Positions 18,657 through 53,298 of a stretch of DNA of 64,000 nt are shown here, in pieces. The stretch comes from Bacilli bacterium (GTDB lineage Bacteria > Bacillota_I > Bacilli_A > RF39 > UBA660). Numbering within the stretch: position 1 is the stretch's first letter; each line of letters opens with the position of its first letter. Below the pieces are notes generated by a model that saw only the letters and a program-made list of their open reading frames with translations, was not told the origin of the DNA and made no database searches. Where the stretch lies: the NCBI GenBank assembly GCA_017441845.1, contig JAFRVB010000009.1, positions 38,841 through 102,840 on the forward strand. The letters are read 5' to 3'. The translations under genes and the position numbers were made by a program.

Positions 18657-19069
18657 GATATTTAGGACTTGATTTAGGGTCTCGTACTTTAGGTATCGCA
18701 ATATCTGACGCTACTGGGACTATTGCGTCTACTTATAAGACTATAAGACATAATGAAGATTATAGACATCTTTTGAATGTCGTAAAAGATATAGTAAAAG
18801 AAGAAGAAATTGATGCGATAGTATTAGGATTTCCTAAGAACATGAATAATACTATTGGACCTAAAGCAGAACTTAGTATTGAATTTAAAGAAGAACTTGA
18901 GAAGAAGCTTAATATTCCAATCTACTTACAAGATGAAAGATTAACCACAACTATCGCCACAAATATATTAATAGAAGGAAATATGAATAGAAAAAATCGT
19001 AAGAAAGTTGTTGACCAAGTAGCCGCAACTATTATTCTTCAAGATTTTTTAGATAGAAAGGAAAAATAA
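18653..19069 (+). CDS. ruvX: YqgF/RuvX family pre-16S rRNA nuclease/resolvase
   Basis: LGLDLGSRTLGIA, VLGFP, QDERLTT, VDQVAATIILQ. Confidence 0.93.
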   Translation: MRYLGLDLGSRTLGIAISDATGTIASTYKTIRHNEDYRHLLNVVKDIVKEEEIDAIVLGFPKNMNNTIGPKAELSIEFKEELEKKLNIPIYLQDERLTTTIATNILIEGNMNRKNRKKVVDQVAATIILQDFLDRKEK

Positions 19070-19070
19070 T

Positions 19071-19349
19071 ATGGATAAGAATTCATTCACAATAATTGAT
19101 CCAGAAGGAGTAGAAAAAACATTTGATGTTTTATTTACATTCGATAATGAAGAAACTAAAAAAAGTTATATTATCTATACTGATAATACTTTAGATAGTA
19201 ATGGAAATGTTGAAGTATATGCTTCTATCTATGATCCAAAAGATCCACATTCTAAATTAGAAGAAATTAAAACTGATAAAGAGTGGAAAGTAATTGAAAC
19301 AATTCTTTCTTCAATAGAAGAAGAAATAAAGAATAAAAAAGGTGAATAA
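19071..19349 (+). CDS. DUF1292 family protein
   Basis: FDVLFTFDNEETKKSYIIY...IKTDKEW; position after ruvX. Confidence 0.85.
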   Translation: MDKNSFTIIDPEGVEKTFDVLFTFDNEETKKSYIIYTDNTLDSNGNVEVYASIYDPKDPHSKLEEIKTDKEWKVIETILSSIEEEIKNKKGE

Positions 19350-19374
19350 GAATTAAAAAGGGAGACAACACGAT

Positions 19375-20427
19375 ATGAAACTAAGAAAACCAATTAAGAT
19401 AATTATGATTCTAACAATACTCCTAGTCGCAACAGGAGTGTTTTATGCTTATTTAATTTCCCCTGTAGATAAAAATGATAATACAGCGATTAAAGTTAAA
19501 GTACAAAGAGGAGCAAGTGTTAAACAAATAGCTAAAACTCTAAAACAAGATGACTTGATTAGAAGTGAAACTCTGTTCTTAATAGAGATGAAATTAAATC
19601 ATCATAAATCATTAAAAGCAGCTACTTATACTTTTGATAAAACTATGAACTTAAATGAAATAATTACTAAATTAGAAAATGCTACTAGTATGGGTGAAGT
19701 ACAAATTACTTTTAATGAAGGAGAGCGAATTACTACATATGCTAAACAGATAGCTGATAAAACAGATAATTCTTATGATTATGTATTAAATAGTATGAAA
19801 GATAGGGTATTCTGTGGGCAATTTGTTAATAAATATTGGTTCTTAACTAATGATATTCTTAATCAAAATATTTATTATCCATTAGAAGGATATTTAGCTC
19901 CAGATACATATGATTTTACTAATGAACAAGTTGATTTAACTACTATTATTGAAACTATGTTAGATCAAGAAGAAAAAGTACTTGAACCATATAAATCTAA
20001 AATAGCAAAAAATCCTCATCATTATATAACTATGGCTTCTATTGCTGAGATAGAAGGAACTAATAAAACTAATAAAAAGATGATAGTAGGAATATTTAAT
20101 AATAGATTACAAGCTAATATGAATTTAGGTAGTGATGTTACTACTTATTATGGATTACAAAGATCTTTAAAAGACAAAGTATCATCTGAAGAATTTGCTC
20201 AGACTAATGCCTATAATACTAGAAGTGTAAATATGGCTGGTAAGATGCCTGTTGGACCAATAAGTAATCCATCTAAAGAAAGTATTGAAGCTAGTGTTTA
20301 TCCAACTAAGAATGATTATTATTTCTTTGTAGCTGATAAACATAGAAAGATATATTATTCTAAAAATCAAGTTGAACATGATAGAACAATCGCAAGACTT
20401 AAAGAAAGTGGTGATTGGCTTTGGTAG
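19375..20427 (+). CDS. mltG: Endolytic transglycosylase MltG
   Basis: N-terminal TM, LEGYLAPDTY, ASIAEIE, YNT...PVGPISNPS, YYFFV. Confidence 0.92.
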   Translation: MKLRKPIKIIMILTILLVATGVFYAYLISPVDKNDNTAIKVKVQRGASVKQIAKTLKQDDLIRSETLFLIEMKLNHHKSLKAATYTFDKTMNLNEIITKLENATSMGEVQITFNEGERITTYAKQIADKTDNSYDYVLNSMKDRVFCGQFVNKYWFLTNDILNQNIYYPLEGYLAPDTYDFTNEQVDLTTIIETMLDQEEKVLEPYKSKIAKNPHHYITMASIAEIEGTNKTNKKMIVGIFNNRLQANMNLGSDVTTYYGLQRSLKDKVSSEEFAQTNAYNTRSVNMAGKMPVGPISNPSKESIEASVYPTKNDYYFFVADKHRKIYYSKNQVEHDRTIARLKESGDWLW

Positions 20428-21029
20428 AAACTTATAAGGAATTAATTCAAGAGATAATGGATTATGCAGAAGAAAATAAGATTCCTATTATGCAACAAGA
20501 AGGTATTATTTATTTAACTAATTATATTGAAAATAATAATATTCATAGTGTACTTGAAATTGGAACAGCTATAGGTTTTTCTGCTATAATGATGGCTCTT
20601 ACTAAAGATGATATCCATATAACTAGTATTGAAAAAGATGAAGAAAGATATATGGAAGCTTTAAAAAATGTTAAGAAGTTAGGTTTAGAAGATAAAATAA
20701 CTTTACTGTATAAAGATGCTTTAGAAGTATCATTAAATAATACTTATGATTGTATTTTTATAGATGCAGCTAAATCTAAAAATACTGAGTTTTTTGAAAA
20801 GTTTTCTCCTAAACTAAATGAACATGGAACTATTATTACTGATAATATGAAATTTCATGGTTATGTAGATAAAGATGAATCTGAAATTAAAAATAGAAAT
20901 CTACGTGGTTTAGTTAGAAAAGTAAAAGAATATAGAGAATTCTTAAAGAATAATAAAAAGTTTGAAACAGACTTTTTAGATGATATAGGAGACGGTATCG
21001 CAGTATCAAGAAAAAGAGAAGAAAAATAG
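20415..21029 (+). CDS. SAM-dependent O-methyltransferase (YrrM/TrmR-like)
   Basis: VLEIGTAIGFSA, IFIDAAK, ITDN, GDG; synteny with mltG and U32 genes. Confidence 0.88.
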   Translation: MALVETYKELIQEIMDYAEENKIPIMQQEGIIYLTNYIENNNIHSVLEIGTAIGFSAIMMALTKDDIHITSIEKDEERYMEALKNVKKLGLEDKITLLYKDALEVSLNNTYDCIFIDAAKSKNTEFFEKFSPKLNEHGTIITDNMKFHGYVDKDESEIKNRNLRGLVRKVKEYREFLKNNKKFETDFLDDIGDGIAVSRKREEK

Positions 21030-21038
21030 GAGTTATTT

Positions 21039-21815
21039 ATGTTTAATAAGTTTAATCTAGATAATCATTATGAAGAAGTATCTAGTAATAAAAAAAATAA
21101 CAATTATAAAAAAATAGATAATTCAACACTAAGATTAATAGCAATCGTATCAATTGCGTTTATAGGGCTATTAGTCTTTTTAGGTATAGATAAAATAATG
21201 AATAATAAGAGTATAACTTTTAGACAAGATAATTCTAAAGATATAGTATATACATTATATGAAAGTAAAAAAGCAGATCAAAAGATCCCTTATTTTAATA
21301 CTAGTAATAAAGATTTACAGTTAATTAATGATAATATTTCTAAATATGTAAAACCTTATCTAAATAATTCAAAAGTAAAAATAAGTTATGATTATAATTT
21401 AAGTGGAATAATACTTTCTTTAGTAGTAAAAATTTATAATGAAGAAAATTATTCTGTTAAATTTAGATCATATAATATTAATTTAGATGAAGAATCTCTA
21501 TTAAGTGATGAATATCTATTAAATTATTATTCTATAGATTCATCTGAAATAAAACAAAAAGTAAAAACAAAATTAAATGATTATTATTTAGATGAAGCAG
21601 GTAAATATTTTGAATTACAAGAAGTGGATTTTGATAGATATTTAGAAATGAGATTATTTAACTCTATTGATACTAAGGATTATGCCTATTATGTAAAAAA
21701 TGGAAAATTAACAGCATATGTTCCTTTTAATCCATATTCTATATATGGAGAAGAAGAGTATTTTACAGAAGATCGTTTTAATATTACTTTAAGTAAGGCT
21801 CCTGAGGAAAGATAG
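21039..21815 (+). CDS. Single-pass membrane protein, extracellular domain resembling DUF4163/DUF3298 (RsiV/PdaC-like)
   Basis: One TM; IPYFN...ILSLVVKI...SYNINL...LLS pattern. Confidence 0.5.
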   Translation: MFNKFNLDNHYEEVSSNKKNNNYKKIDNSTLRLIAIVSIAFIGLLVFLGIDKIMNNKSITFRQDNSKDIVYTLYESKKADQKIPYFNTSNKDLQLINDNISKYVKPYLNNSKVKISYDYNLSGIILSLVVKIYNEENYSVKFRSYNINLDEESLLSDEYLLNYYSIDSSEIKQKVKTKLNDYYLDEAGKYFELQEVDFDRYLEMRLFNSIDTKDYAYYVKNGKLTAYVPFNPYSIYGEEEYFTEDRFNITLSKAPEER

Positions 21816-21824
21816 GAGGAAGTT

Positions 21825-22757
21825 ATGAATTATATTAATATTTTAGCTGGATGTAATTCTACACTTGGTACTTGTTGTAAAGATTATGGATTAGTAAAAA
21901 TATTAGCTATTTATGATAATGTTTTCTCCTTGATTCAGATCTTAGTACCAATACTATTATTATTATCTGCTTCAGCTCAATTATTTAGAATGTTAAGACA
22001 ACCAGAAGAAAAGAAACATATAAAGTCTTTAAGAGCTAAATTTCATGCAGCTGCTATAGTATTTGTTATACCAATATTTGTAAATTTAGTTATCGCAATA
22101 GCTACTGATAATTCTGATTTACAAAAGTATGAAACACTAGCTTGTTTAAAAGAGGCTAAACATACTGTTAGTTCTATGAATAAACAAGGTAATTATATAA
22201 AGAAGAATTCCAGTAATAAAGGTAGCGGACCTATGATTATAGATCCTAGTAAATATAAAGGTACTGATGGTAATCCTAATGCTTCAGAAGGAACTTATTC
22301 TACTAATTCAAGTAGTGATGATTCGTCTACTAATAGTTCCGATACTAGAAATTATGCAGTTACCACAACTTCTGATGGTAAAAAAGTAGTAAGTTATGCT
22401 AAACAATTCTTAGGTAAAGCATATCAATATGGTGGTCAATGGAATGGCTCTCCTACCTATACACCAACTGATTGTAGTGGGTTTGTCAAAGGAGTTTATG
22501 CTCACTTTGGATATAATATCCCAAGAGTCGCTGGAGCTTCTTACTATAATTCAAGTAGTGCTTTAAAGAAAGTTTCAAATAGTAACTTACAAGCAGGAGA
22601 CTTAGTATTATATTCTGGGCATGTCGCTATGCTAACAGGTAATGGAAAAGAGATAATCCATGCTTCAAATAGAAAAGATGGAATAAAATTAACTTCAACG
22701 TATGCTTATCGTGGAGGAAATATACTAGGTTTTTATAGAGTAAAAGGTATAAGCTAA
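21825..22757 (+). CDS. VirB2/TrbC-like pilin domain fused to NlpC/P60 cell-wall peptidase
   Basis: N-terminal two-TM hairpin aligns by eye with ORF 41980; S/N/T linker; C-terminal YQYGG, DCSGF, GHVAM, IIHAS. Confidence 0.8.
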   Translation: MNYINILAGCNSTLGTCCKDYGLVKILAIYDNVFSLIQILVPILLLLSASAQLFRMLRQPEEKKHIKSLRAKFHAAAIVFVIPIFVNLVIAIATDNSDLQKYETLACLKEAKHTVSSMNKQGNYIKKNSSNKGSGPMIIDPSKYKGTDGNPNASEGTYSTNSSSDDSSTNSSDTRNYAVTTTSDGKKVVSYAKQFLGKAYQYGGQWNGSPTYTPTDCSGFVKGVYAHFGYNIPRVAGASYYNSSSALKKVSNSNLQAGDLVLYSGHVAMLTGNGKEIIHASNRKDGIKLTSTYAYRGGNILGFYRVKGIS

Positions 22758-22819
22758 AAAATAAAGTCTAACTTTATTTTTTTATTTATTTATCATATAA
22801 TATGAACGGGTGGACTACT

Positions 22820-23677
22820 ATGAAATTATTAATAGAAAAAATTGATAATAACTTTAAAAATCTAAATGTAGATGGAATAATTCTAGCTTTAAAAGATTTA
22901 TCTATTCAAAGTATAAAATACTATTCAATTGATGAAATAAAATCTATTAAAGAAGAATATCCTAATCTAGAAATATTCATTAAAATAAATAAAAATATTA
23001 TGAATAAAGATTTAGATTTATTGAAAGAAAGTTTAATTGAATTAGATAAGTTAAATATTAATGGAGTATTCTTCTATGATTTAGCTTTTTTACAATTAAA
23101 GAAAGAATTAAATCTTTCCATAGATTTAGTATGGGATCAAACTCATATGGTTAATAATTATAAGACATGTGATTACTATAATTCCTTAGGAGTAAAATAT
23201 GCTTTATTAAGTAAAGAAATAACTCTAAATGAAATAAAAACTATAATTGAAAAATCTAAAATAACTTCTATGGTAGAAGTAGTCTCAGTACCTAGTATAG
23301 CTTTTTCTAAAAGAAAGTTATTAACAAGTTATTTTAAAAATATAAATAAAGAATTAAAAGAAGAAATAGAAGTAATAGAGAAAGTATCTAATAATAAATA
23401 TATAGTTATGGAAGATAATAATGGTACTAGTTTTTATGATGCGAACATAGTTAATGGTACTTCTCTAATTAAAGATTTATATGAAATGAATTGTCCATAT
23501 ATAATTATGAGAGAATATAAAATACCTAAGTTTGATGAATTGGTTAATGATACTAAAGAATATATTGATAATAAATGTATAGATACTAAGTATATTGATA
23601 AATACAAAGTTTTAGGAGATAATACTAATTTCTTCTATAAAGAAACTATATATAGGGTGAAGAAAAATGAAAAATAA
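22820..23677 (+). CDS. Peptidase U32 family protein (YrrN/TrhP2-like)
   Basis: LVWDQTHMVNN, LLSKEITL; directly upstream of the second U32 gene. Confidence 0.75.
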   Translation: MKLLIEKIDNNFKNLNVDGIILALKDLSIQSIKYYSIDEIKSIKEEYPNLEIFIKINKNIMNKDLDLLKESLIELDKLNINGVFFYDLAFLQLKKELNLSIDLVWDQTHMVNNYKTCDYYNSLGVKYALLSKEITLNEIKTIIEKSKITSMVEVVSVPSIAFSKRKLLTSYFKNINKELKEEIEVIEKVSNNKYIVMEDNNGTSFYDANIVNGTSLIKDLYEMNCPYIIMREYKIPKFDELVNDTKEYIDNKCIDTKYIDKYKVLGDNTNFFYKETIYRVKKNEK

Positions 23678-24857
23678 GAGAATAGAATTATTGTCTCCCG
23701 CAGGAGATTTAGAAAGATTAAAAGTAACACTTCTTTATGGCGCAGATGCTGTATATTTTGGAGGAGAGAAATACTCTCTAAGAGCTAATGCGACTAATTT
23801 TTCATTAGATGAAATTAGAGAAGGATGTGAATTTGCTCATAAACTAGGTAAAAGAGTACATTTAACTTTAAATATAGTTTTTCATAATGAAGATATGGAT
23901 GGAGTAGAGGAGTACATTAAAGATGTAGTGGATTGTGGAATAGATGCTTTTATCGTAAGTGATCCATTTATTATTTCACATATTAAGACTAATTATCCTC
24001 AAGTAGAAGTACACTTATCTACTCAAAACTCTACTACTAACTATGAAGCAATTAATTTCTTTGGTTCTCAAAAAGTAGATAGAGTAGTACTAGCTAGAGA
24101 ATTAAGTAAAGATGAAATAAAAGAGATAATTGATAATACCGATGTCGATATTGAAACATTTATTCATGGCGCTATGTGCACATGTTTTTCAGGAAGATGT
24201 GCTCTATCTAACTATGTAACTAACAGAGATGCTAATCGAGGAGGATGTTCTCAAGTATGTAGATTTACATTCTCTAATGGTAATGAAGAAGATTTCTCAC
24301 TAGCTACTAAAGATATGAATATGTCAAATTATATTAAAGATTTAATAGACATTGGAGTAACCTCTCTAAAAGTAGAAGGTCGTATGAGATCTTTATATTA
24401 TCTAGCTACTGTTATAGGTACTTATCGTAAGATAATAGATGAGATTTATGATAATACTTTGACTGATGAGAAGATGAAAATCTATGAAGAAAGATTAAAT
24501 AGAGTAGCTAATAGAGAAACTTCATCACATTACTTCTTAAAAGAAGCAGATGAAACTGATCAGTATTTTACAGGTAGACAAGAAATATCTAATCAAGATT
24601 ATCTAGGACAAGTTATTTCTTATGAAAATAATTTAATTAAATTCTATGAAAGAAACTATTTTGAAATAGGGGACACAGTAGAACTATTTACTCCTAAAGG
24701 AGATAGTATTACTTTTATAGTTGAAGAATTATTAGATGAAGAACAAAATAAAATAGATGTCGCAAGACATCCAGATAATATCTATTATTTAAAAATAGAT
24801 ACTGATATAGATATACCAGAGTATTCTATGTTAAGATTAGTAAAAAGAAATAAATAA
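23667..24857 (+). CDS. Peptidase U32 family tRNA hydroxylation protein (YrrO/TrhP1-like)
   Basis: ELLSPAG, GADAVY, HLSTQ, HGAMC..SGRC, RGGCSQVCR, SLKVEGR. Confidence 0.9.
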   Translation: MKNKRIELLSPAGDLERLKVTLLYGADAVYFGGEKYSLRANATNFSLDEIREGCEFAHKLGKRVHLTLNIVFHNEDMDGVEEYIKDVVDCGIDAFIVSDPFIISHIKTNYPQVEVHLSTQNSTTNYEAINFFGSQKVDRVVLARELSKDEIKEIIDNTDVDIETFIHGAMCTCFSGRCALSNYVTNRDANRGGCSQVCRFTFSNGNEEDFSLATKDMNMSNYIKDLIDIGVTSLKVEGRMRSLYYLATVIGTYRKIIDEIYDNTLTDEKMKIYEERLNRVANRETSSHYFLKEADETDQYFTGRQEISNQDYLGQVISYENNLIKFYERNYFEIGDTVELFTPKGDSITFIVEELLDEEQNKIDVARHPDNIYYLKIDTDIDIPEYSMLRLVKRNK

Positions 24858-24871
24858 TACTAGGAGGATAT

Positions 24872-28194: not shown

Positions 28195-28195
28195 T

Positions 28196-41979: not shown

Positions 41980-42321
41980 ATGAACAAGTATTTTTTAATA
42001 GGAACAAACACTGATTTATCATCAGATTGTATGGGACTTGAACCATTTGTAAAAATAGTAAAGAAAGCATTACTTCCAATGTTCTATATCATAATTCCAA
42101 TTGCTTTAATTTTATATGGAGTTATTGATTTAGGAAAAGCAGTTATTGCTTCAGATGAAAAGGAAATTAAGGAAGCTCAAGGAAAATTAATTAAGAGATT
42201 TATATATGCTGCTTTAGTATTCTTAATTGTCTTCTTAGTTTCATTATTGATGCAAATTGTATCAACATCAAGCGTTGGAGATACAAATGCATGGTTCGCA
42301 TGTTGGAAACATATAAAATAG
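41980..42321 (+). CDS. VirB2/TrbC-like T4SS pilin 1
   Basis: Two hydrophobic helices with a charged loop (DLGKAVIASDEKEIKEAQ...KRFIYAALVF), Cys near each end. Confidence 0.7.
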   Translation: MNKYFLIGTNTDLSSDCMGLEPFVKIVKKALLPMFYIIIPIALILYGVIDLGKAVIASDEKEIKEAQGKLIKRFIYAALVFLIVFLVSLLMQIVSTSSVGDTNAWFACWKHIK

Positions 42322-42345: not shown

Positions 42346-42425
42346 GTAAACAAAAGTAAGAATAATTGATATTTTTCCCTTGATTTGATATACTTATTAT
42401 GATAATAATAAGAGATGTGATTCAT

Positions 42426-42887
42426 ATGAAAAAGTCAATTTTTATTTTATTTATATTAATAATTGGTATCTTAGTAATGGTACCTAAAAACACATATGCT
42501 TATACTAATGGATATGTATTGACGACAACTAACAGTCAAGATGTAAATGAATACATTAATAGTGTAAAAAGTGGAAACGTATATAAACAAGATGCTTCAT
42601 CATGTAATTCATTATTGGGTAATCCAAATGAACCTGATTCAGTAGCTTGGTTATTATATAAAATTTTGAACTATATGAGAGTTTTAGGTCCACTAGCAGT
42701 AATTGTACTAAGTGGAATAGAATTTACTAAAGCTATCGTAAATAGTGATGATGATACAATGAAGAAAGCCACGGGTCATCTGAAAACGAGACTTATTATG
42801 GCAGCCTTACTATTCTTAATACCTACAATCACTAAGTTATTGTTCCAAGTATTTGGAATAGCTACTGATTGTGGAATACTTAATTAA
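42426..42887 (+). CDS. VirB2/TrbC-like T4SS pilin 2 (with signal peptide)
   Basis: Signal peptide ...NTYA; paralogous hairpin EFTKAIVNSDDDTMKKA...RLIMAALLFL; Cys pair. Confidence 0.7.
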   Translation: MKKSIFILFILIIGILVMVPKNTYAYTNGYVLTTTNSQDVNEYINSVKSGNVYKQDASSCNSLLGNPNEPDSVAWLLYKILNYMRVLGPLAVIVLSGIEFTKAIVNSDDDTMKKATGHLKTRLIMAALLFLIPTITKLLFQVFGIATDCGILN

Positions 42888-42913: not shown

Positions 42914-45121
42914 ATGATTTTAGACTTTGAAGTCAACGAAGATCAGCCTGGCGTTGGCAACAATCTAATCAGAATCATATTTAGTAAGCTTGATTTTGTT
43001 GCATTCTCATTGATGAAATTCATGTATGAAATATTCTTCAATGTTGCAACTGCAGAGTTCTTCAGTAATGCAACTATCAGAAGCTTCTATGGAAGAGTCC
43101 AATTAATACTTGGAGTTTTTATGGTGTTTAGATTATCTATCGTAGTACTTCAAACTCTAATAGACCCAGAAAAAATAAATGATAAAAATGAAGGCTTTGG
43201 TGCCATTATTAAGAGAGTAGTTCTAGGTTTATTATTACTAGCTGCTTTAACTCCGATAAATGTACCAAATGCTAGTAATGATTTTGAAATAGAATTAAAC
43301 AATAATGGTTTAATATTCGGAACACTTTATTCCCTACAGAATCGAATATTAGCTAATAATACAATAGGTCGAATAGTCTTAGGTACCACAGACACCAATA
43401 CGGGTACCAATGAATCGGCTAATTCAACGGCCCAGACGGATAATGAAGGAAAGCGGCTAAGTTCAATGGCCAATGTCTTTACTTCAACGATAATGCGTAT
43501 CTTTGTCAGGATAAATCTCCGAGGCGAAGATACATCGAATCCTCGTAAACTGGATGCTAATGGCAATGTCGATATGACGGATAACAGTAACTGGATGTGT
43601 GATATAGAAAATGGTGTATTAGAAACATATACTAGACTAGATGCTGATCCAGCAGACTTAACTTCAAATGCTCTTTTAACCACAACTTGTGGTAATGGAA
43701 AAATAGCATCTGCATTTAATAAGATTTCAGGACATAACTTGTGGTATTCAGGAAAAGCAAGATATGCCTTTAACTATATTCCAATTCTAGGAACTATAGT
43801 GGCGATAATAATGACAGTTATCCTATTAGGATTTACAGTAGATATAGCTGTCCGTGCGATTAAATTATCAGTATTAAGATTGATCGCACCAATCCCAATA
43901 ATTGCTTATATGGGACCACAATCAAAAGATAATAATGCGTTCTCTAACTGGGTTAAAGCAGTTGTTGGAACATATTTAGATTTATTTATACGTTTAGCAG
44001 TTGTATTCTTTGTACTATTCTTAATTCAAGATATTTTAGTAAATGGAATTACAATAAACATTGGTGGAGGAATTGTTGGAGCATTCTCAATGATCTTCAT
44101 CATAATCGGTTTATTTATCTTTGCTAAACAAGCACCACAATTTATTAAAGATGTATTAGGTATTAAATCATTTGGTTCAAATATTGGACTTGCTACTATT
44201 ATGGGTGGACTTGGTTCAATTAGAGGTGGAGGAATCGGTATGGCCTCAGGTGCCTTAAATGCATTCAGAGAGCAAACTGATGCTGCTGCTCAAGGAAAAC
44301 AAGCTCCAGGAATCATGGATACTTGGAGACAATCAACTGATAATATGGCTAAGATTAGAACTGGAGATAAACAAGCTCACGGTGGACCACTTGGAGCATT
44401 ACAAGATAGATTAGCATATCAAAATAGAGAAGCTGCTGCTGATAGACTTGGTATTGGTAGTAGGGACTTTGCTAGAGCTTCATATGTTAATAAAGCTAAT
44501 AAGCTAGATATGGAAAATAAAGAGGCTGAAATGAATGCTGCTAATAAAGATCTTGCAAGATATCAACGTAATGGTGGTATGATGACAAGAGCACAATTAG
44601 CTCAAGAACATGGTCTAACTGATCAACATGAAATTGATAATGCATACAGTGCATACAAACAACAATATGCTCAAGCTGAACAAAGAGCTAGAACAGCTGA
44701 AGCAGAATATAAAGAAGCTGCTAATAAATACTCTGATTCTAAAGACAACGTAGAGAGAATGAGCAAAGAAAGACAAGCTATGGATGTTCTTCCAAGAATT
44801 GTCGATGTTGAAAGACATCATGGTAAAAATTACCAAGGTGTGGCTGGAAGAGTACAAGATGCAATTTACTATAGAGAACCACAAAAAGTTGTTACAGATT
44901 CTAATAAAGTTGCCATTGATTCTAATGGCCAACAAACTCAAAATGTGGAAGATTATCAATACGAAAGAAGCAACGAAGGTTACGATGGTGCTGTTGATGA
45001 TACAACATTCTTAAGTATAGCTTCTGGTCATGGAACTGGACAAGGTGGACCATCTGGAGGAGGCGGAGGCCCTATAGGAGGACCGCCACCAGGAGGAGGA
45101 TCTCCACCACCTACACCGTAG
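42914..45121 (+). CDS. Extended VirB6/TrbL-like T4SS channel subunit
   Basis: N-terminal TMs, extracellular loop, AVRAIKLSVLRLIAPIPI...WVK core TMs, KQAP motif, ~330 aa hydrophilic C-terminal tail. Confidence 0.75.
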   Translation: MILDFEVNEDQPGVGNNLIRIIFSKLDFVAFSLMKFMYEIFFNVATAEFFSNATIRSFYGRVQLILGVFMVFRLSIVVLQTLIDPEKINDKNEGFGAIIKRVVLGLLLLAALTPINVPNASNDFEIELNNNGLIFGTLYSLQNRILANNTIGRIVLGTTDTNTGTNESANSTAQTDNEGKRLSSMANVFTSTIMRIFVRINLRGEDTSNPRKLDANGNVDMTDNSNWMCDIENGVLETYTRLDADPADLTSNALLTTTCGNGKIASAFNKISGHNLWYSGKARYAFNYIPILGTIVAIIMTVILLGFTVDIAVRAIKLSVLRLIAPIPIIAYMGPQSKDNNAFSNWVKAVVGTYLDLFIRLAVVFFVLFLIQDILVNGITINIGGGIVGAFSMIFIIIGLFIFAKQAPQFIKDVLGIKSFGSNIGLATIMGGLGSIRGGGIGMASGALNAFREQTDAAAQGKQAPGIMDTWRQSTDNMAKIRTGDKQAHGGPLGALQDRLAYQNREAAADRLGIGSRDFARASYVNKANKLDMENKEAEMNAANKDLARYQRNGGMMTRAQLAQEHGLTDQHEIDNAYSAYKQQYAQAEQRARTAEAEYKEAANKYSDSKDNVERMSKERQAMDVLPRIVDVERHHGKNYQGVAGRVQDAIYYREPQKVVTDSNKVAIDSNGQQTQNVEDYQYERSNEGYDGAVDDTTFLSIASGHGTGQGGPSGGGGGPIGGPPPGGGSPPPTP

Positions 45122-45154
45122 GATAGAATAATAAAAAAAGGAGTGTGATACTAC

Positions 45155-45481
45155 GTGAATAATTACTTGATACCTGCTAATACAAAACAAGGAAAATTAA
45201 TAATGGGATTATTTAAACCAATAGATTTAATACTATTTGGTACAGGAATATTGATTACTTTAATAATGTTAGCGTTTGCTCAAAACAGTTCATTATTATT
45301 TACAATATTATCCTTACTTCCTGGTTTAATTACTGCTTTCTTAGTAGTACCCATTCCTAATTATCACAATATTTTAACAATAATAATTGAAATGTATGAG
45401 TTCATTACTCATAATCAAACTTATAAATGGAGAGGTTGGTGTGTGACAAATGGCGCAAGTAAAAAAAGAATCAAAAAATAA
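45155..45481 (+). CDS. PrgI/VirB3-like small membrane protein
   Basis: YLIPAN...GLFKPIDL, two TMs, precedes VirB4. Confidence 0.65.
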   Translation: MNNYLIPANTKQGKLIMGLFKPIDLILFGTGILITLIMLAFAQNSSLLFTILSLLPGLITAFLVVPIPNYHNILTIIIEMYEFITHNQTYKWRGWCVTNGASKKRIKK

Positions 45482-46031
45482 TACACAAGTAAAAGCAACA
45501 ACTAACTGGACTGAAGATTGGCTTCCAGTTAAAAGTATTCAAAACAACTGTATTATTACTAAAAGTAATTTGAAAGTGACAGGGGTTAAAATAACTCCAC
45601 GAAATATCTTTATTTTAGATCTAGATTCTCAAAATAGAGTATTGACTGGATTAAAGAATTTTTATAACATGCTTGATTTTGAATTCTGGCTAGTTGTAGC
45701 AGACCGTCCAGTTGATTTAAGCGTGTACATGTCACAATTACAACTTCTATATAACGAAACACAATCTCAAGCAATAAGAAAATTAATTGCTCAAGACTTA
45801 GATAAAGGAACTTCATTTATAAGAAATAATATAGTTGATACAGAATATTACTTCTTGTTTAAAGATAAAGATCAAGATGTAATAGATAAAAAGATCAGAT
45901 TAATGATAAATGGTCTAGCAACTTGTGGACTAAATGCTTCCCAAGTAAATAATGAAGATTTAAGAGTAATCTTAGATAACTTCTTAAATGGTGGAACTAA
46001 AACTGAGTTTGGGACGGTGATGAGTATATGA
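45450..46031 (+). CDS. TrsD-like / VirB4 N-terminal-like accessory protein
   Basis: WLPVKSI, VKITPRNIF, RPVDL, EYYF, L..CGL; stop overlaps the VirB4 start (ATGA). Confidence 0.55.
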   Translation: MAQVKKESKNNTQVKATTNWTEDWLPVKSIQNNCIITKSNLKVTGVKITPRNIFILDLDSQNRVLTGLKNFYNMLDFEFWLVVADRPVDLSVYMSQLQLLYNETQSQAIRKLIAQDLDKGTSFIRNNIVDTEYYFLFKDKDQDVIDKKIRLMINGLATCGLNASQVNNEDLRVILDNFLNGGTKTEFGTVMSI

Positions 46032-47821
46032 GTTTAAATTTTAGAAGTCAAGTAGCCCCAAAAGGTTTAAGTTTTTCACCAAGTGATTTTTACATAAGTG
46101 ATCATTATGCAACTATTTTAACAGTAGTTTCATATCCAAAATATATTTTACCTGGTTATTTATCATCTTTAACTAATATGTCTGGAATTAAGGTTGTTGT
46201 AAAACATATACCAGTTCCATTTACAGATATGGCTAAGATGTTAAATAAACAAGTTGCAGAATTAAGAGAACAATATAAAAATGAACGTGATCAAACTGCC
46301 AGAGAACGTATTAGACAAGATGCTGAATCTTTAGAATATTTCACATCAATGCTAGCTGGTTCTCAAGCTAAAATATTTGATTATCAAATGCATATCATGA
46401 TTACAGCAGGAACAAAAGAAGAATTAGAAATTAAAAAAATTAATGTTAAGAATTATTTAGATGCGATGGAATTAAAAGCAGTATCACTACGTTTTGAACA
46501 AGAAAAGGTATTAAAATCAATTTTACCTGTCTTTCCAAAACAAGATATTGAAGAGAGAATTGGTACACCAATACCAAGTGTAACAATTTCAGCTATGTAT
46601 CCATTCATCTTCGATAGTGTAAAAGATCCAGGATTATCAACACTACTTGGTGTAGATTTCTCTGGAGGAGTTATATTATTTAATCAATTCTTATATAAAA
46701 TTAGAAAAGAAAACAATAGAAATAACGCTAATATGATTATTTTAGGTACATCTGGTTCTGGTAAATCTACAGCAGCTAAATTGATGCTTAGAACTCATAT
46801 TAGAAATGGATGTCAAATAGTAATAATCGATCCAGAAGATGAGTTGAGAGAAATGACTCAAACTTTTGGAGGAGATACAGTAGATATTGGTAAAGGTGGA
46901 GAATTTGGACTTATCAATCCATTAGAAGTGGTAATAGATGCTGATGAAGAAGAAATTAGACAAGGACTTGGTTATACAGTATTGACGAGAACACTTCAAT
47001 TCTTAAGAGCATTTATGACATACTATGATCCATCTATGCAAGATGATGTTCTTACAATGTTTTCTGAAGTAGTACAAGATACATATAAACGTTTCGGAAT
47101 AGATTTTAATACAGATTTCTCTAGATTTACATCAGAGGATTATCCAACATTTAGTGATGTATACGCTACTATAAAGGGACGTTTAATGGCAATGACTGAT
47201 CAAACACATGAAAAAGATATTATGGAAAGATTAGAGTTAAAAGTTAGACCTATCGTAAATGAATTAAAATTCTATTTTGATGGTAAAACTACTCTAAGAA
47301 AAGATTCTGATTTTATGGTATTTAATATTAAAGAATTAATGAATTCTGATTCTAATATTAGAAATGCACTATTCTTTAATGTATTAAAATATGCTTGGAG
47401 TCTATGTTTAGACTTCAATGTAAATACAGTACTAATGGTTGATGAAGCACATGTTTTATTAGGAGATAAGAACGCTTTAGGAGCTGAATTCTTATCACAA
47501 GTACAAAGACGTGCTAGAAAATATAATACTGGTACAATTCTAATTACACAGCAACCATCAGACTTTGTTGCGAATGAACAAATCTTGATGCATGGTAAAG
47601 CTATTTTCGATAATGCTTCATACTATTTAGTAATGGGCTTAAAGAAACAAGCTGTTGAAGATTTAAGTTTATTAATAGATTTAAACGAAAGTGAAAAAGA
47701 GGGTATTAAGAGATATTCTCAAGGAGAAGCACTATTTGTCTGCGGTAATAAACGTATGCAAATAAATGTTGCTGTAACTAAAGAAGAATTAGAATCATTC
47801 GGTTCTGGAGGAGGTTTCTAG
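46028..47821 (+). CDS. virB4: VirB4/TrsE-like T4SS ATPase
   Basis: Walker A GTSGSGKS, IDPEDE, INPLE, Walker B MVDEAH, RRARKY, ITQQPSDF. Confidence 0.9.
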   Translation: MSLNFRSQVAPKGLSFSPSDFYISDHYATILTVVSYPKYILPGYLSSLTNMSGIKVVVKHIPVPFTDMAKMLNKQVAELREQYKNERDQTARERIRQDAESLEYFTSMLAGSQAKIFDYQMHIMITAGTKEELEIKKINVKNYLDAMELKAVSLRFEQEKVLKSILPVFPKQDIEERIGTPIPSVTISAMYPFIFDSVKDPGLSTLLGVDFSGGVILFNQFLYKIRKENNRNNANMIILGTSGSGKSTAAKLMLRTHIRNGCQIVIIDPEDELREMTQTFGGDTVDIGKGGEFGLINPLEVVIDADEEEIRQGLGYTVLTRTLQFLRAFMTYYDPSMQDDVLTMFSEVVQDTYKRFGIDFNTDFSRFTSEDYPTFSDVYATIKGRLMAMTDQTHEKDIMERLELKVRPIVNELKFYFDGKTTLRKDSDFMVFNIKELMNSDSNIRNALFFNVLKYAWSLCLDFNVNTVLMVDEAHVLLGDKNALGAEFLSQVQRRARKYNTGTILITQQPSDFVANEQILMHGKAIFDNASYYLVMGLKKQAVEDLSLLIDLNESEKEGIKRYSQGEALFVCGNKRMQINVAVTKEELESFGSGGGF

Positions 47822-47845
47822 ACCATATAAAAAGAAGGTGAGGAA

Positions 47846-50176
47846 ATGGCATCATATCAAGCTAATAGAGATGGTATGGATGGTGGAGACAGAGCTGCTC
47901 AAAGCTATTCAGATCAGAAAAAAGCTGAAGATAAGAGAAGCGATGAAAATAATGCTAAAAACATACAAAATGCTGCTGATGTTGCCATTGCTTCCAAAAA
48001 TCCTTATGCTATGGCTGCAGGAGCAGCTGTAAAAGGTGCAGATAAAGTTACTGGTGGAAAAGCCTCAAAAGCTCTAGGTAAAGCACTTACTAGATCTAAC
48101 AAATTTAATCCTGCTGGTAAAAAAATCCAGGATGCTTCTAATAAATTAAGTGAAAGTGGAGCAAGTGATGCCATTGGCAAAGTTGCTTCAATGAAAGGTG
48201 GCGCTGGAGGTGCCGAAGCAGGAACAGCAGGGGCAGCCGGTAAAGCTAATGCTGCAAGTGATATGTCAAAAGCAGGAGGAGGACCAGAAAGTTCTCTTCC
48301 TTCTTCTAGTGGAGAAGGCTCTGCTTTAGATAAAATAGGTGGAGGAAAGAAGTCTAGTTCTAAAGATTCCTCAAAACCAGAAGAAAAACCATCTGATCCA
48401 GGAGAAGGAAACTATGATTTTTCTAAAGGTTTATTAAAGATGATAATGGCTAATCCAGTAGCTATTGCTTTAGTTTTTGGATTACCAATCTTAATCGCAA
48501 TATCATTCATGACAGTAATGTTAATCAACAGTATAGAAGAAGATTCTAAATATGAAGATGCTCTAGCAGTTTCAACAGCTACAGGAGGCGCCACAGGTTA
48601 TACACAATATAATTCAATGAATGATGAATTTAGAGATTATATTCAAAGAGTTATAGGTGTTACTGGAGACGATGGAACTAGTGATAGTTATACTTCATAT
48701 AATGATAGTCCATATCTAATTGTTGTCGGAACAGTACATGTCATAATGGATAAAGATGGTACTTATACTTATGAATATTTTACTAATGGTAAATTAAGAA
48801 AAATAGCTAGAGCGGTCGCTGGAGATGAACAAGGTACTAAAACTAATCTAGCTAATAATATTTTTCCAAAATATTTCCCTGGATTATCTCAAGGAGAATA
48901 TGAGAATTTAGCTGATAGAGTATTTGAATATATTACTAATTATTATAGTTATATAGGTGCCAATCGAAATAGTGGAGTATGTGTTCCTACATCTACTAGT
49001 AATTGTACTTATGGAATAAAAGGATTCTATATTCCTGGAAAAGGTAATGTTAAAGAAGAACTAAATCTTAATAATGTTAAAGTTAGAATAATGGATTGTA
49101 ATGATAGTTCTAAAGCTGTTGCTGGTGAAGATTTAGTTGATTTTGAAAAATATGTTTTAGGTGTTGCTTATGCTGAAAATGAAGGGGCACCTGAAGAAGC
49201 TTTTAAAACACAATTGATTGCGGCTCGTAGTTTTATTCTTGCTAGACATGCTGATATGGGTGGCAAGATTAAAAAAGAGGGCGATAACTATATAATAGAA
49301 GCTAGATCATGTACTAAAGATCAAGTTTATTGTAATCCTGATTTAGGATGTTCAAAAACTAATGGTAACATGCGAAGTGGAACTGATTATACTTTATATA
49401 AGAAAGCTATTCCAAGTGATAGTAAATATCGTTCTTGGGCAAAAGAAGTAGAAGGAAAAGTTCTACTTAATGATCAAGGTTATGTTGTTTATACTGGCTA
49501 TAAACGAAAAGAACAAACTCAATTTAATTCTTTAGCAAAAGCAGGAAAAGATTATAAACAAATATTACTTGAAGTATATAGTTCTTCTAAAGCTTCTAGT
49601 ATTGGAGGATCTAGTTGTTCAACTTCAGAAGCATGTGCTTCAGTAGGTACAGCAGCCTCAGGAGACTATACAACGTGGAAACAAACAAATAGTTTATGGG
49701 GAAGTATACCTTTAGGTAATTCTTCAACAGATATAGCTAATTCTGGTTGTACAGTAACTTCTATTGCTATGCAGATAAAAAGAAGTGGAGTAGACACTTC
49801 TAATGTTCAAGGAGATTTTAATCCAGGTACTTTTGTTCAAGGATTAAATAAAATTGGTGGATTTGCTGATAATGGAGGAATAATTTGGGAAAAAGTAACT
49901 GAATTAGTTCCACACTTTAAATATATAACTACTAAAGAAGTAAGAGGTAAAACTCAAGAAGAAAAATTAAATGAATTAAGAAATTTAGTAGGAAAAGGAT
50001 ATTATGTAGTTGCTGAAGTTAAAGGAGCAACCCAAAACTCACAACACTGGGTTGCTGTAAATCAAGTAGTAGGAAATACTATTACAATGATGGATCCAGG
50101 TTCTTCAGCAACAGATATGTGGAAAACATATGACCCTGTTAAAACAACATTCTTTGTATGTTATAAAGCTGATTAG
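47846..50176 (+). CDS. Membrane-anchored cell-wall hydrolase: SpoIID/LytB-like plus peptidase C39-like domains
   Basis: G/A/S-rich N-terminus, TM; FEKYVLGVAYAEN...EAFKTQLIAARSF...DQVY; WKQ..WG..LG...SGCTVTSIAM...HWV...DPG. Confidence 0.75.
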   Translation: MASYQANRDGMDGGDRAAQSYSDQKKAEDKRSDENNAKNIQNAADVAIASKNPYAMAAGAAVKGADKVTGGKASKALGKALTRSNKFNPAGKKIQDASNKLSESGASDAIGKVASMKGGAGGAEAGTAGAAGKANAASDMSKAGGGPESSLPSSSGEGSALDKIGGGKKSSSKDSSKPEEKPSDPGEGNYDFSKGLLKMIMANPVAIALVFGLPILIAISFMTVMLINSIEEDSKYEDALAVSTATGGATGYTQYNSMNDEFRDYIQRVIGVTGDDGTSDSYTSYNDSPYLIVVGTVHVIMDKDGTYTYEYFTNGKLRKIARAVAGDEQGTKTNLANNIFPKYFPGLSQGEYENLADRVFEYITNYYSYIGANRNSGVCVPTSTSNCTYGIKGFYIPGKGNVKEELNLNNVKVRIMDCNDSSKAVAGEDLVDFEKYVLGVAYAENEGAPEEAFKTQLIAARSFILARHADMGGKIKKEGDNYIIEARSCTKDQVYCNPDLGCSKTNGNMRSGTDYTLYKKAIPSDSKYRSWAKEVEGKVLLNDQGYVVYTGYKRKEQTQFNSLAKAGKDYKQILLEVYSSSKASSIGGSSCSTSEACASVGTAASGDYTTWKQTNSLWGSIPLGNSSTDIANSGCTVTSIAMQIKRSGVDTSNVQGDFNPGTFVQGLNKIGGFADNGGIIWEKVTELVPHFKYITTKEVRGKTQEEKLNELRNLVGKGYYVVAEVKGATQNSQHWVAVNQVVGNTITMMDPGSSATDMWKTYDPVKTTFFVCYKAD

Positions 50177-50188
50177 AAGGAGATTAAT

Positions 50189-50992
50189 ATGAAAAAAAAT
50201 ACTCAAGTCGCAATAATAGTAATTATTTCATTGACAATATTCTTGTTAGTATTTTTCCTATTCTCTAATAGAGATGGAGTAGTTTTTACTTCTTCTAAGA
50301 GTGAAGGCTATTTAATAGTAGGTCAAAACTCTATGTTTTCTTATCATAATAAGAAAATATATAATGTACCAATCAATAGTAATGTAATGAAAGAATTAGA
50401 TTGGAATGAATTCAAAGTATTAGATAATTATAAAGTTAAAGGAAATTATCTAATGCACTTTGATGAAAAATGGTATTTATTTACTAAAGATAGAAAAGCT
50501 GTTACTTATGAAAGTGATAGTATTATAGCTTATAAAGCTAATTATAAAATGAACTATGTATATAAAGAATCTATTCCTATAGTAGATAATGAATATGTAG
50601 AGAAAGTTGCTGATAAAAAAGGTGTGGCAGCAGAAAATTTAACTGTTAATGAAGAAGTAAATATGGATATAGATAATGATGGTAAAAATGAAACTTTCTA
50701 TCTAATAAGTACAGCTTTACCAGTAATACCTACAGAGGATAAAGAGTACTCTATAGTATTCATGGTTAAAGATGGCAAAATCTATAATATTTATGATACT
50801 TTAGTAGCTAAAATAATTCCTGATATATGTCAACCTAAGATAGAAGGATTTATTAATTTAAATGAAAATAATAAGTATGAAGTAATACTTTCTTGTAGTA
50901 CGATTGGACCTCGTGAACAAAAAGTTTATTTGTATGAAATGACTAAGAAAAATGGTAATTTACAATTTGAATTAAAAGCATCTAATACATAG
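50189..50992 (+). CDS. Single-pass membrane protein with DIDNDGKNE Ca-binding-like motif
   Basis: N-terminal TM; DxDxDG motif; Cys pair. Confidence 0.6.
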   Translation: MKKNTQVAIIVIISLTIFLLVFFLFSNRDGVVFTSSKSEGYLIVGQNSMFSYHNKKIYNVPINSNVMKELDWNEFKVLDNYKVKGNYLMHFDEKWYLFTKDRKAVTYESDSIIAYKANYKMNYVYKESIPIVDNEYVEKVADKKGVAAENLTVNEEVNMDIDNDGKNETFYLISTALPVIPTEDKEYSIVFMVKDGKIYNIYDTLVAKIIPDICQPKIEGFINLNENNKYEVILSCSTIGPREQKVYLYEMTKKNGNLQFELKASNT

Positions 50993-51018
50993 ACAGTTTT
51001 AAAAAGTTAAGATATAAT
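50990..51018 (+). promoter_or_regulatory. Internal promoter for VirD4
   Basis: TAGACA-17 nt-TATAAT. Confidence 0.55.
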
Positions 51019-51042
51019 ATTAAATGAGAAAGGACGAAGTAT

Positions 51043-53298
51043 ATGAAACTAAAATTACGTGTTGATTCAGATGATTTATTAATGTTTGGTGTATTTGCAG
51101 TATTCTTACTATATGTAATAGCTGTATTAATTTTAAATGTTTCACATTTAGCATCAGAAGGTTCATTATCTGGATTAAACCCATTTCCAGCTTTTGGTCC
51201 TAAATATATAGCAATTACTATACCTTTATGGCTACTAGGATTAGGTGCCATTCTTTTCAGTGTTAAATCATATATCTTTGAAAGAGATACAGGAATAGGT
51301 TTAACTACTGAAAAAGTATCTAAAGGTTATTCAAGATGGGCAAAAGATAAAGAAGTTCAAAATGATGCAGACATGATGGAAATAGATGTCTATGATAAGA
51401 ATGTTAAAGGTGCAGGAGTACCATTAATACTTAAAAAAGATAAACTTTGGGTAGATAATGGAGAATATCATACTTTAGTTATTGGATCTACTGGTTCAGG
51501 TAAAACTCAAACAGTAGTTTTCCCTATGGTTAGAGTTCTAGCTCGTCATGGAGAAAGTATGATTATTACTGACCCTAAAGGTGAAATCTATGAAAAGACA
51601 GCTAATATGCTTCGTAAAAAAGGTTATCAAATATTATTATTAAACTTCCGTGATCCTCAAAGAGGTAATGCTTGGAATCCGATGAGCCTACCTTATAGCC
51701 TATATCAACAAGGAAATCAAGATAAAGCTATCGAGTTATTAGATGACTTAGCACTAAATATTTTGTATGATGCTTCATCTAATCAACAAGATCCATTCTG
51801 GGAGAAAACTTCAGCTGATTACTTCGCAGGTATTGCCCTAGGTTTATTTGAGGATGCTAAACCAGAGGAAATAAACATCAATTCTATTTCTTTAGCCACA
51901 ACAGTTGGTGAAGAAAAGTTTGGTGGTTCTACATATATTAAAGAATATTTTGGAGATAAAGATCCAAGAAGTGCTGCTGCAATTGATGCATCTTCTACTA
52001 TAATGGCACCAGATGATACAAAAGATTCAATTCTAGCAGTATTCAAACAAAAAATTAAATTGTTCGCTTCACGTGAAAATTTAAGTGAAATGTTATCTTA
52101 TTCTGATATAGATATATCTACTATCGGAGAAAGAAAAACAGCTGTATTTATCGTTATTCAAGATGAAAAGAAAACATATCACGCCTTAGCGACAATTCTA
52201 TTAAAACAAATTTATGAAACACTTATTTCAACAGCTCAAAAACATGGTGGAAAACTACCAGTTAGAACAAACTTCATCTTAGATGAGTTTGCCAACATGC
52301 CACCATTAAAAGATGTTACTACTATGATTACCGCAGCTCGTTCTCGTAAGATAAGATTTACAATGATTATTCAAAACTATGCTCAATTAGATCAAGTTTA
52401 TGGTAAAGAAGAAGCTGAAACTATACGTGGTAACTGTGGTAACTTAATTTACTTATTAACTACTGAGTTAAAAGCCTTAGAAGAAATATCTAAGATGTGT
52501 GGTGAGGTTAAATCTAAGAAAGATGATAAAACAGCTTCAACACCTTTAGTAACAGTTTCAGACTTACAAAGAATGAAGAAGTTTGACGTTATCATTATGC
52601 GTACAAGACTTCAACCATTCAAAACACACTTTACTCCAGATTTTCAAATAGATTGGGGAGAAAAACCTCCTAAATCTGGATATCCAACTAGAGAAAAACG
52701 TGAAATTCATACTTTCGATATAAAACAATTTGTTAAAGATACTAAAAAGAAAAAATTATTAGAAATGATGAATCAAGATACATCTGGTTCAAATGATTCT
52801 AGAGGTGGAGGAGCTAAACCTGTACCACCAATAAGTCCATTTGAACAAAGAATTAAAGAAAAACAAGCTGAAATCAGTAAAGAAGATTCTAATATTACTC
52901 ATGAAATACCAAAACCAAGTATTGATATAAAAGAAAATGATAAGAGTTCTATCGCAATGAGTAAAGAAGAATTAAAAACAACACCATTTGGTCAATTTAA
53001 TAATGAATCAGTAATTAAACCTAATCCATTCCCATCTATCGATGTTAAAGAAGATGAAGATGATCAAGATGAATTAGAATTTGATGTGGATGAATTAGTA
53101 AAGAAAATAGATGCTAAAATAGCCGAACTAGAAAGAGAAGAAGCCTTAGAACGTCAAAAATCTAAATCCAAAGGAGCATCCTCAACTAAAGAGACTACAC
53201 CGGTTGTTGAAACTCCTCAGCAAAAACCAACTAATCTTAACTTAGAAGAATTAGATGAAGATGATGATGATTTCTTTGATGATTTCTTTGATAATTAG
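51043..53298 (+). CDS. virD4: VirD4/TraG-like type IV coupling protein
   Basis: Two N-terminal TMs, HTLVIGSTGSGKT, ITDPKGE, WNP, FILDEFAN, ARSR, IQNYAQL..YG; long acidic tail. Confidence 0.92.
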   Translation: MKLKLRVDSDDLLMFGVFAVFLLYVIAVLILNVSHLASEGSLSGLNPFPAFGPKYIAITIPLWLLGLGAILFSVKSYIFERDTGIGLTTEKVSKGYSRWAKDKEVQNDADMMEIDVYDKNVKGAGVPLILKKDKLWVDNGEYHTLVIGSTGSGKTQTVVFPMVRVLARHGESMIITDPKGEIYEKTANMLRKKGYQILLLNFRDPQRGNAWNPMSLPYSLYQQGNQDKAIELLDDLALNILYDASSNQQDPFWEKTSADYFAGIALGLFEDAKPEEININSISLATTVGEEKFGGSTYIKEYFGDKDPRSAAAIDASSTIMAPDDTKDSILAVFKQKIKLFASRENLSEMLSYSDIDISTIGERKTAVFIVIQDEKKTYHALATILLKQIYETLISTAQKHGGKLPVRTNFILDEFANMPPLKDVTTMITAARSRKIRFTMIIQNYAQLDQVYGKEEAETIRGNCGNLIYLLTTELKALEEISKMCGEVKSKKDDKTASTPLVTVSDLQRMKKFDVIIMRTRLQPFKTHFTPDFQIDWGEKPPKSGYPTREKREIHTFDIKQFVKDTKKKKLLEMMNQDTSGSNDSRGGGAKPVPPISPFEQRIKEKQAEISKEDSNITHEIPKPSIDIKENDKSSIAMSKEELKTTPFGQFNNESVIKPNPFPSIDVKEDEDDQDELEFDVDELVKKIDAKIAELEREEALERQKSKSKGASSTKETTPVVETPQQKPTNLNLEELDEDDDDFFDDFFDN

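Follow-up and report, generated by a model that had tools for sequence, protein, structure and literature searches.

A predicted wall endopeptidase joined to a hairpin homologous to VirB2-like pilins in a family of small-genome Bacilli

Type IV secretion systems (T4SSs) of monoderm bacteria are accompanied by VirB1-like wall hydrolases, such as PrgK of pCF10, TraG of pIP501, CwlT of ICEBs1, TcpG and the CD419 family, in which an N-terminal anchor holds an NlpC/P60 or CHAP domain outside the membrane. Here we describe a protein of similar outline, encoded at 21825..22757 of a 64,000-nucleotide stretch of DNA (the window; this gene, its upstream neighbour, two pilin genes and the core of the T4SS lie on the + strand), which corresponds to positions 38,841 to 102,840 of contig JAFRVB010000009.1 in the Bacilli bacterium assembly GCA_017441845.1. 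Judging from its sequence, the gene would encode a membrane-tethered peptidoglycan endopeptidase, the N-terminal 110 residues of which form a hairpin that descends from VirB2-like pilins. The genome likewise holds a monoderm T4SS. Nonetheless, the anchor of the fusion is a pilin homologue and not a plain signal-anchor, a glycosidase domain is lacking, and the gene is part of the core chromosome, outside the T4SS operon, rather than being borne on a mobile element.

The hairpin itself invites comparison with the pilins of family PF18895. Papers on this family place arrays of VirB2-like pilins in the T4SSs of Patescibacteria only and do not mention enzyme fusions (PMC12102498, PMC12857230), whereas the host of the fusion belongs to a Bacillota lineage. 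The fusion is similar to PF18895 pilins in its hairpin of two transmembrane (TM) helices with a positive loop, in its profile homology to the pilin encoded beside VirB6/VirB4 in this genome and in residing in a host with a conserved chromosomal T4SS, but it differs from them by the 200-residue linker and enzyme on its C-terminus, by its site 24 kb from the VirB4 gene and by forming a separate clade. The same principle, in which a filament-subunit module carries a functional C-terminal domain, is known from modular type IV pilins such as PilB and PilC of Streptococcus sanguinis (PMC8179133, PMC9934059). However, these belong to an unrelated filament superfamily, whose subunits have one N-terminal helix and a signal peptide of class III, neither of which applies to the fusion, and their known modules are adhesins or lectins and not wall enzymes. 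Finally, the housekeeping DL-endopeptidases CwlO, LytF and Spr/MepS share the catalytic family and residues of the fusion, and its location near MltG would fit an own-wall role; these enzymes have signal peptides, are anchored by LysM, a coiled coil or a lipid and are controlled by FtsEX or comparable regulators, and none is known with a pilin-derived hairpin. The design of the fusion combines anchored wall hydrolases with modular filament subunits and is apparently undescribed. The author of an earlier note on this DNA knew of no described system with a pilin-tethered enzyme, and our literature searches on pilins together with hydrolases likewise gave no published description of this design.

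The hairpin, the linker and the enzyme

The kinship between the N-domain of the fusion and the pilins of the T4SS locus was seen in both pairwise and profile comparisons. In BLASTP, residues 7-112 of the fusion align with the whole length of the pilin encoded at 41980..42321 (33/111 identical, 30%, E 3e-6), as the earlier note had proposed by eye, and the N-domain aligns with the pilin encoded at 42399..42887 at 23% identity over 94 aa (E 1e-4). When 24 fusion N-domains were compared with 28 stand-alone pilins by hhalign, the two profiles matched with a probability of 99.3% (E 1e-20, 102 columns). This profile-profile match shows that N-domain and locus pilins are genuinely homologous; the note had held that a lack of such profile similarity would refute its proposal, which therefore survives this check. 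Both families also have an invariant Cys pair flanking the hairpin (C18/C107 in the fusions, C17/C108 in the pilins), which bears out the remark that a Cys near the N-terminus and another after the second TM helix correspond in the two proteins. The N-domain of the fusion does not match PF18895 at E <= 0.1; the profile is matched by 39/82 long relatives at E <= 0.001, and three paralogues encoded in the same genome reach 25.5-28 bits, where the cut-off is 26.6. The label "pilin" for the locus proteins itself rests on their PF18895 scores and their position upstream of VirB6-like, VirB4-like and VirD4 genes.

In a tree of hairpins the locus pilins are cleanly separated, as a clade with support 0.915, from the fusion hairpins, and the latter lack the invariant DLGKAVIASDEKE loop of the pilins and have invariant residues of their own, P60 and P83, instead. 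A Foldseek search of the Protein Data Bank (PDB) with the AlphaFold2 (AF2) model of the hairpin returned no match at E <= 0.001, and a profile search of the PDB gave only chance matches (GPCRs, Sec61) and no solved VirB2 or TraA pilin. These searches against solved pilins are uninformative because a helical hairpin holds too little information. A fusion of the holin-endolysin type was set aside, since the homology of the hairpin points to T4SS pilins.

The gene encodes 310 aa and has ~95 full-length homologues of 274-320 aa. Its AGGAGG ribosome-binding site (RBS, 21814-21819) lies 5 nt ahead of the ATG and overlaps the stop codon of the upstream gene. An artefact of calling open reading frames (ORFs) was ruled out, given that the ~95 homologues share the start, the RBS and the full length. 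The N-tail (residues 1-32, 21825..21920) has a Cys cluster (C10/C17/C18) within the motif CNxTLGTCCxDYGL and a net charge of 0, and is predicted to lie outside the cell; AF2 confidence is low at residues 1-16. Among fusion N-domains C18 is invariant, and C10 and C17 are at least 90% conserved. TM helix 1 follows at residues ~33-54 (21921..21986), with Q38, P42 and L45 invariant, and the predicted cytoplasmic loop at residues 55-72 (RMLRQPEEKKHIKSLRAK, 21987..22040) has charges of +7/-2 and the family motif NPD/E-x-K; in this loop P60 is invariant and N71 at least 90% conserved. TM helix 2 spans residues ~73-94 (22041..22106), with A75, A76, F80 and P83 conserved; P83 is invariant in the fusions, and the pilin position that hhalign aligns to it is not a proline. 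A further helix after TM helix 2 (residues 95-120, 22107..22184) holds C107, invariant in alignments of 48 and of 82 sequences. The hydropathy maxima at residues 32-48 and 77-88 and the AF2 model of the hairpin domain, with helices at 21-58, 64-96 and 104-117 (pLDDT 69.5), underlie this layout. A class III signal peptide, with a prepilin-peptidase site and one hydrophobic helix, is absent from the fusion, which starts with MNYINILAGCNSTLGTCC and has two TM helices.

Beyond the hairpin, the earlier note had described an S/N/T linker followed by an intact NlpC/P60 domain, and composition, Pfam and conservation all agree with it. The linker (22185..22412) is of low complexity (15 S, 9 N and 8 T among the 68 residues 115-182) and contains the motif I138-I-D-P-S-K-Y-K-G146 (nt 22236-22262). 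The NlpC/P60 (C40) peptidase domain occupies 22413..22700, and Pfam NLPC_P60 (PF00877) matches residues 197-292 with E 1e-14 and 54.8 bits against a cut-off of 23. Its putative catalytic residues are C217 (22473-22475), H266 (22620-22622) and H279 (22659-22661), and D216-C217-S218-G219 and both His are at least 90% conserved among 48 relatives. This Pfam match and the conservation suggest an active enzyme. Among solved chains the closest are the CD1368 hub-hydrolase, an NlpC/P60 domain protein, Spr/MepS, CwlO and 4fdy, the last of which we take to be a CwlT-type protein. As for topology, the C-terminus of the hairpin should face outward, given the charges of the loop, the neutral N-tail and the signal peptide ahead of the hairpin in the second locus pilin; C18 and C107 would be the presumed partners of a disulfide.

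One module with many enzymes

The fusion is not alone in its genome (784 kb, 67.5% complete), which has six hairpin ORFs, namely the two locus pilins and four enzyme fusions. The other three fusions stand in tandem on contig C4 (L019, G000:C4:15001-35000, positions 8807-12677, - strand), each with a hairpin and a C-domain. The first, of 303 aa (PF18895 26.5 bits), carries a CHAP domain (E 2e-12). The second, of 417 aa (28 bits), has a C-domain without a Pfam match, but its motif REGGSTTKIFTGYAA is close to REGASTTKIFTGYAA in a relative's fusion that matches Peptidase_S11, and its C-domain is likely of S11 type. The third, of 336 aa (25.5 bits), has an NlpC/P60-like domain. The 336-aa and 417-aa fusions are 85% identical over residues 1-140 and unrelated beyond, and no gene lies between them. 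Genes around the cluster encode two NAGPA phosphodiester glycosidases, a lipoprotein and a glycosyltransferase. All four fusions of this genome share a junction motif, xGTMIIDPSKYxGxDxxPN, and relatives in other genera have a looser version, h-[DN]-P-x-x-[YF]-x-x-G. The IIDPSKYxG core sits ~45 residues past TM helix 2, inside the low-complexity linker, and could mark a site of processing, of docking or of recombination.

Across relatives the repertoire is broader. Hairpin-borne domains comprise NlpC/P60, CHAP, Peptidase_C39_2/C70, glucosaminidase, Amidase_5, Amidase_3, M23, VanY, S11 and YkuD, as well as GDSL, alpha/beta-hydrolase and NAGPA-like domains. At the level of the family, a conserved N-terminal module is thus joined to variable C-terminal domains, as in families of polymorphic toxins and effectors. 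When the hairpin profile was run against 1.84 billion representatives, 5,852 clusters (50% identity) matched at E <= 1e-3 and 845 at E <= 1e-10. Among 82 long top matches, 39 reach PF18895 and 37 bear NlpC/P60, and C18, P42, P83 and C107 are invariant across these 82 proteins with their unrelated enzymes. Such a large family with clear signature residues makes systematic annotation possible. In one alignment of representative hairpin proteins (A5), a single protein from a metagenome has a Pfam ATLF-type metalloprotease domain (E 3.5e-46) in place of a wall enzyme, and others bear S9, DLH or GDSL hydrolase domains. In one genus (genomes G017 and G109; loci L028, L030, L031 and L039) the linker is an E/K-rich stretch of ~70 residues in place of S/N/T; its composition suggests that it could form a single alpha-helix or a coiled coil and so hold the enzyme at a fixed distance from the hairpin. 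Among short hairpin proteins listed as "stand-alone" in databases, some are frameshifted or truncated fusions (P0241 follows P0048 for ~118 residues and then diverges), so that metagenomic counts of stand-alone pilins are inflated.

The hairpin profile matched 146/151 genomes of the order (83/86 genera), with up to ~16 matches per genome, and all but one of the positive genomes belong to one family, with genomes of 0.6-1.6 Mb. In a class-wide sample, 28/28 genomes of that family were positive compared with 2/~222 from other families, and the two positives outside the family are short stand-alone ORFs. In the sampled genomes, therefore, fusions are confined to one family of small-genome Bacilli. 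These bacteria make their own peptidoglycan, since penicillin-binding proteins and four Mur ligases were found in 8/8 genomes. The VirB4-like protein is a core gene product of the same family (142/151 genomes of the order, 63-88% identity), and over the 151 genomes the hairpin and VirB4 give a 2x2 table of 141/5/1/4 (both, hairpin only, VirB4 only, neither; Fisher p 3e-5), the four genomes with neither being G069, G092, G106 and G143. We rejected this co-occurrence as evidence. The profile also matches the locus pilins, and the comparison is uninformative because the loci are linked on the chromosome, so that gaps in metagenome-assembled genomes remove both, and because both features are near-universal in one clade. 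For the suggestion that a fusion found mostly in genomes lacking the T4SS would speak against a link between the two, the near-ubiquity of the VirB4-like gene leaves the table without power.

Genomic setting and the T4SS locus

The fusion gene lies in a housekeeping cluster, between an O-methyltransferase gene and U32 peptidase genes. The gene order is IreB, RuvX, DUF1292, YceG/MltG, O-methyltransferase, the fusion with a partner gene, U32, U32, HD and GreA; it is kept in three relatives that are only 35-41% identical, in which genes for a surface protein and a sortase come after GreA, and the window matches this arrangement. No + strand terminator was predicted between 17000 and 28500. A promoter scan was uninformative in such AT-rich DNA, with 80 sites found versus 91 expected. 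The partner, immediately upstream of the fusion (21039..21815), is a protein of 258 aa with a single TM helix and an outer alpha/beta domain (AF2 pLDDT 82). As a protein of ~250 aa it adjoins the fusion in three relatives' loci (L001, L003 and L005, 33-37% identity), with a gene order that flips between genera, and in L005 the fusion is tandemly duplicated. Searches with the partner gave no Pfam match and no PDB sequence match, and its best fold match, DUF3298 (4e72, E 0.05), is not significant; DUF3298 is a fold that binds lysozyme in RsiV. Neither the assembled genome as a whole nor the surroundings of the other three fusions contain a paralogue of the partner.

The part of the window that separates the fusion from the T4SS (28445-40121) has genes for an Ig-like surface protein, a sortase, a protein of 1047 aa, DUF5411 and an RcpC/CpaB protein of a Tad-type pilus; the beginning of this block is syntenic in relatives. 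The whole region is syntenic within the family, and in five genomes (G000, G011, G074, G035 and G119) the fusion and VirB4 lie on the same strand at a distance of 23-36 kb. The earlier description of the fusion as encoded in trans to the T4SS holds for the window, where 19 kb separate it from the pilin genes downstream and 24 kb from the VirB4-like gene.

The T4SS locus has two pilin genes. The first (41980..42321, 113 aa) is VirB2-like and homologous to the N-domain of the fusion, and scores 16.4 bits with PF18895, below the cut-off of 26.6. The second (42399..42887, 162 aa) has a signal peptide, an N-terminal extension and the hairpin, and scores 26.8 bits against the same cut-off. The two share 38% identity and sit directly upstream of the Pfam-defined T4SS core (42914..53298), which comprises a TrbL/VirB6-like protein (42914-45121), a VirB4-like AAA_10 protein (46028-47821), a SpoIID-domain protein that is a candidate wall hydrolase (47846-50176) and VirD4 (51043-53298). 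In relatives' T4SS loci (L033, L034 and L037; P0359) the pilins come in arrays of 2-3 genes. In some of these locus pilins the hairpin is preceded by a signal peptide and a long N-terminal extension rich in Cys, so that the module is extended at either end. According to a 2025 review of T4SSs, VirB2 is absent from Gram-positive T4SSs save those of Patescibacteria (PMC12857230). A Bacillota family with VirB2-like pilins encoded beside VirB6 and VirB4 on the chromosome is a second exception to this rule.

What the fusion might do

We favour, with roughly even confidence, the interpretation that the fusion is a membrane-tethered, outward-facing endopeptidase acting on the wall of its producer, with the pilin-derived, disulfide-stapled hairpin serving as a module for export and anchoring. 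The hairpin would insert with both ends outside and its positive loop in the cytoplasm, a C18-C107 disulfide would staple the two outer ends, and the flexible S/N/T linker (~75 residues, with the IIDPSKYxG motif) would allow the NlpC/P60 domain to reach the wall and cut stem peptides of the producer's own peptidoglycan, perhaps together with the neighbouring protein (21039-21815) and the adjacent MltG. Inherited vertically and kept in synteny, the fusion would belong to a set present throughout the family, in which a single pilin-derived module might export and anchor almost all types of wall enzyme. Several observations lead us to an own-wall role: the core position next to MltG in a housekeeping cluster, the peptidoglycan synthesis of the producers, and the wall-maturation enzymes (S11 DD-carboxypeptidase, YkuD L,D-transpeptidase and VanY) that, like GDSL and NAGPA-like domains, ride on the same module beside the lytic ones. 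Moreover, the tandem cluster of paralogues has no candidates for paired immunity genes and sits among envelope genes (a glycosyltransferase gene and two NAGPA genes), the T4SS locus has its own SpoIID-domain candidate hydrolase, the fusion hairpins are a radiation apart from the locus pilins, and the lack of a terminator in 17000-28500 and the RBS overlapping the upstream stop codon are consistent with a single transcription block.

Nonetheless, some features sit uneasily with a mere anchor. The invariance of Q38, P42, L45, P60, A76 and P83 and of the Cys pair goes beyond what a plain anchor would need and points to a specific interaction; since the hairpin is conserved so far beyond hydrophobicity, it probably also binds something, be it itself, the pilins or the T4SS. 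Another NlpC/P60 protein of the same genome uses an ordinary signal-anchor, which argues that the hairpin is not needed merely for export. The N-modules that stay 85% identical while C-domains are swapped, together with the one ATLF-like domain, recall polymorphic effectors. Finally, the sampled fusions occur only in a lineage that keeps the T4SS.

Alternatively, the fusion could be a cargo or minor pilin, as the earlier note had suggested, although we consider this unlikely. The T4SS would extract the hairpin in the manner of VirB2 and insert it at low stoichiometry into a pilus made of the pilins encoded at 41980 and 42399, with the enzyme hanging from its C-terminus on the long linker and cutting a wall, be it that of the producer, around the pilus as it grows, or that of a cell it touches. 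Homology with the pilins over the whole hairpin, including the Cys pair, would fit such a role, as would the conservation well past hydrophobicity, the predicted C-out topology that puts the enzyme outside, and the confinement of the sampled fusions to a T4SS-keeping family. The pilins of F-type and T-type pili expose both termini on the outside of the filament, with the loop facing its lumen. Modular pilins with functional domains are, besides, established for type IV pili (PMC8179133). However, the 2025 review calls a pilus for PF18895 systems only a possibility, none having been demonstrated (PMC12857230). The fusion hairpins form a clade apart, lack the invariant loop of the pilins and have an extra invariant proline in TM helix 2, fold and profile searches give no link to solved VirB2 or TraA pilins, and the gene is in a housekeeping cluster. 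Up to ~16 hairpin genes per genome, with bulky enzymes, are also many for a filament lattice. The wall synthesis of the producers and the SpoIID-domain protein of the T4SS locus point away from co-assembly as well. If the fusion were nonetheless a pilus subunit, it would be the first enzyme-bearing conjugative-type pilin and would hint at the role of conserved, relaxase-less T4SSs in small-genome bacteria.

A quite unlikely possibility is that the hairpin docks the peptidase to an envelope machine, either the VirB6/VirB4 apparatus or the Tad apparatus, the genes of which lie between the two loci, and that the enzyme thins the wall locally in a VirB1-like role. The same-strand linkage to VirB4 in five genomes would agree with this, although it may be mere general synteny of the family. 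The pilin-like hairpin would be a plausible ligand for the pilin-binding site of such a machine, and 4fdy, a protein of CwlT type, is among the matching solved chains. N-anchored NlpC/P60 or CHAP hydrolases are, moreover, standard in monoderm T4SSs, as in PrgK, TraG, CwlT and the CD419 profile (PMC12102498). Yet the fusion gene lies outside the T4SS operon, the operon already has its SpoIID-domain candidate, and many paralogues bear non-lytic enzymes (S11, YkuD and GDSL) and are scattered over the genome.

We regard as equally doubtful a broader idea, in which the VirB2-type hairpin is a general carrier and the relaxase-less T4SS lifts hairpins into a filament or array of exchangeable wall enzymes, with which a partner's wall would be breached, remodelled or harvested. 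Were it true, the machinery for a contact-dependent lifestyle would be common to this Bacillota lineage and the ultrasmall epibionts, whether through convergence or through gene transfer.

Improbable, in our view, is a contact-dependent weapon or feeding tool, in which polymorphic effectors with swappable warheads are presented to neighbours by the T4SS and the 258-aa protein protects the producer. The kept N-module with swapped C-domains (85% identical versus unrelated) would be expected of such effectors, as would the breadth of the C-domain repertoire, which includes C39/C70-like domains and one ATLF-like protease, the conserved junction motif after the module, and a partner gene that stays with the fusion even when the order flips. 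Small genomes (0.6-1.6 Mb) with conserved Tad and T4SS loci also repeat a pattern of the Patescibacteria, which cannot grow as epibionts without their T4SS (PMC12102498, PMC12857230). However, the gene is fixed, syntenic and present in one or two copies in a housekeeping cluster, and not in a variable island. No candidate immunity gene lies between the tandem fusions of this genome, the partner has no paralogue beside those three fusions, several C-domains are wall-maturation enzymes and not toxins, and the producers themselves have peptidoglycan.

Returning to the own-wall endopeptidase that we favour, a hairpin acting only as an anchor would represent a new way of exporting and positioning autolysins in reduced genomes. 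A family of Bacillota would then have turned a pilin hairpin into a carrier for its own wall enzymes, with one syntenic copy in the core genome and a broad repertoire of enzymes on the same module.

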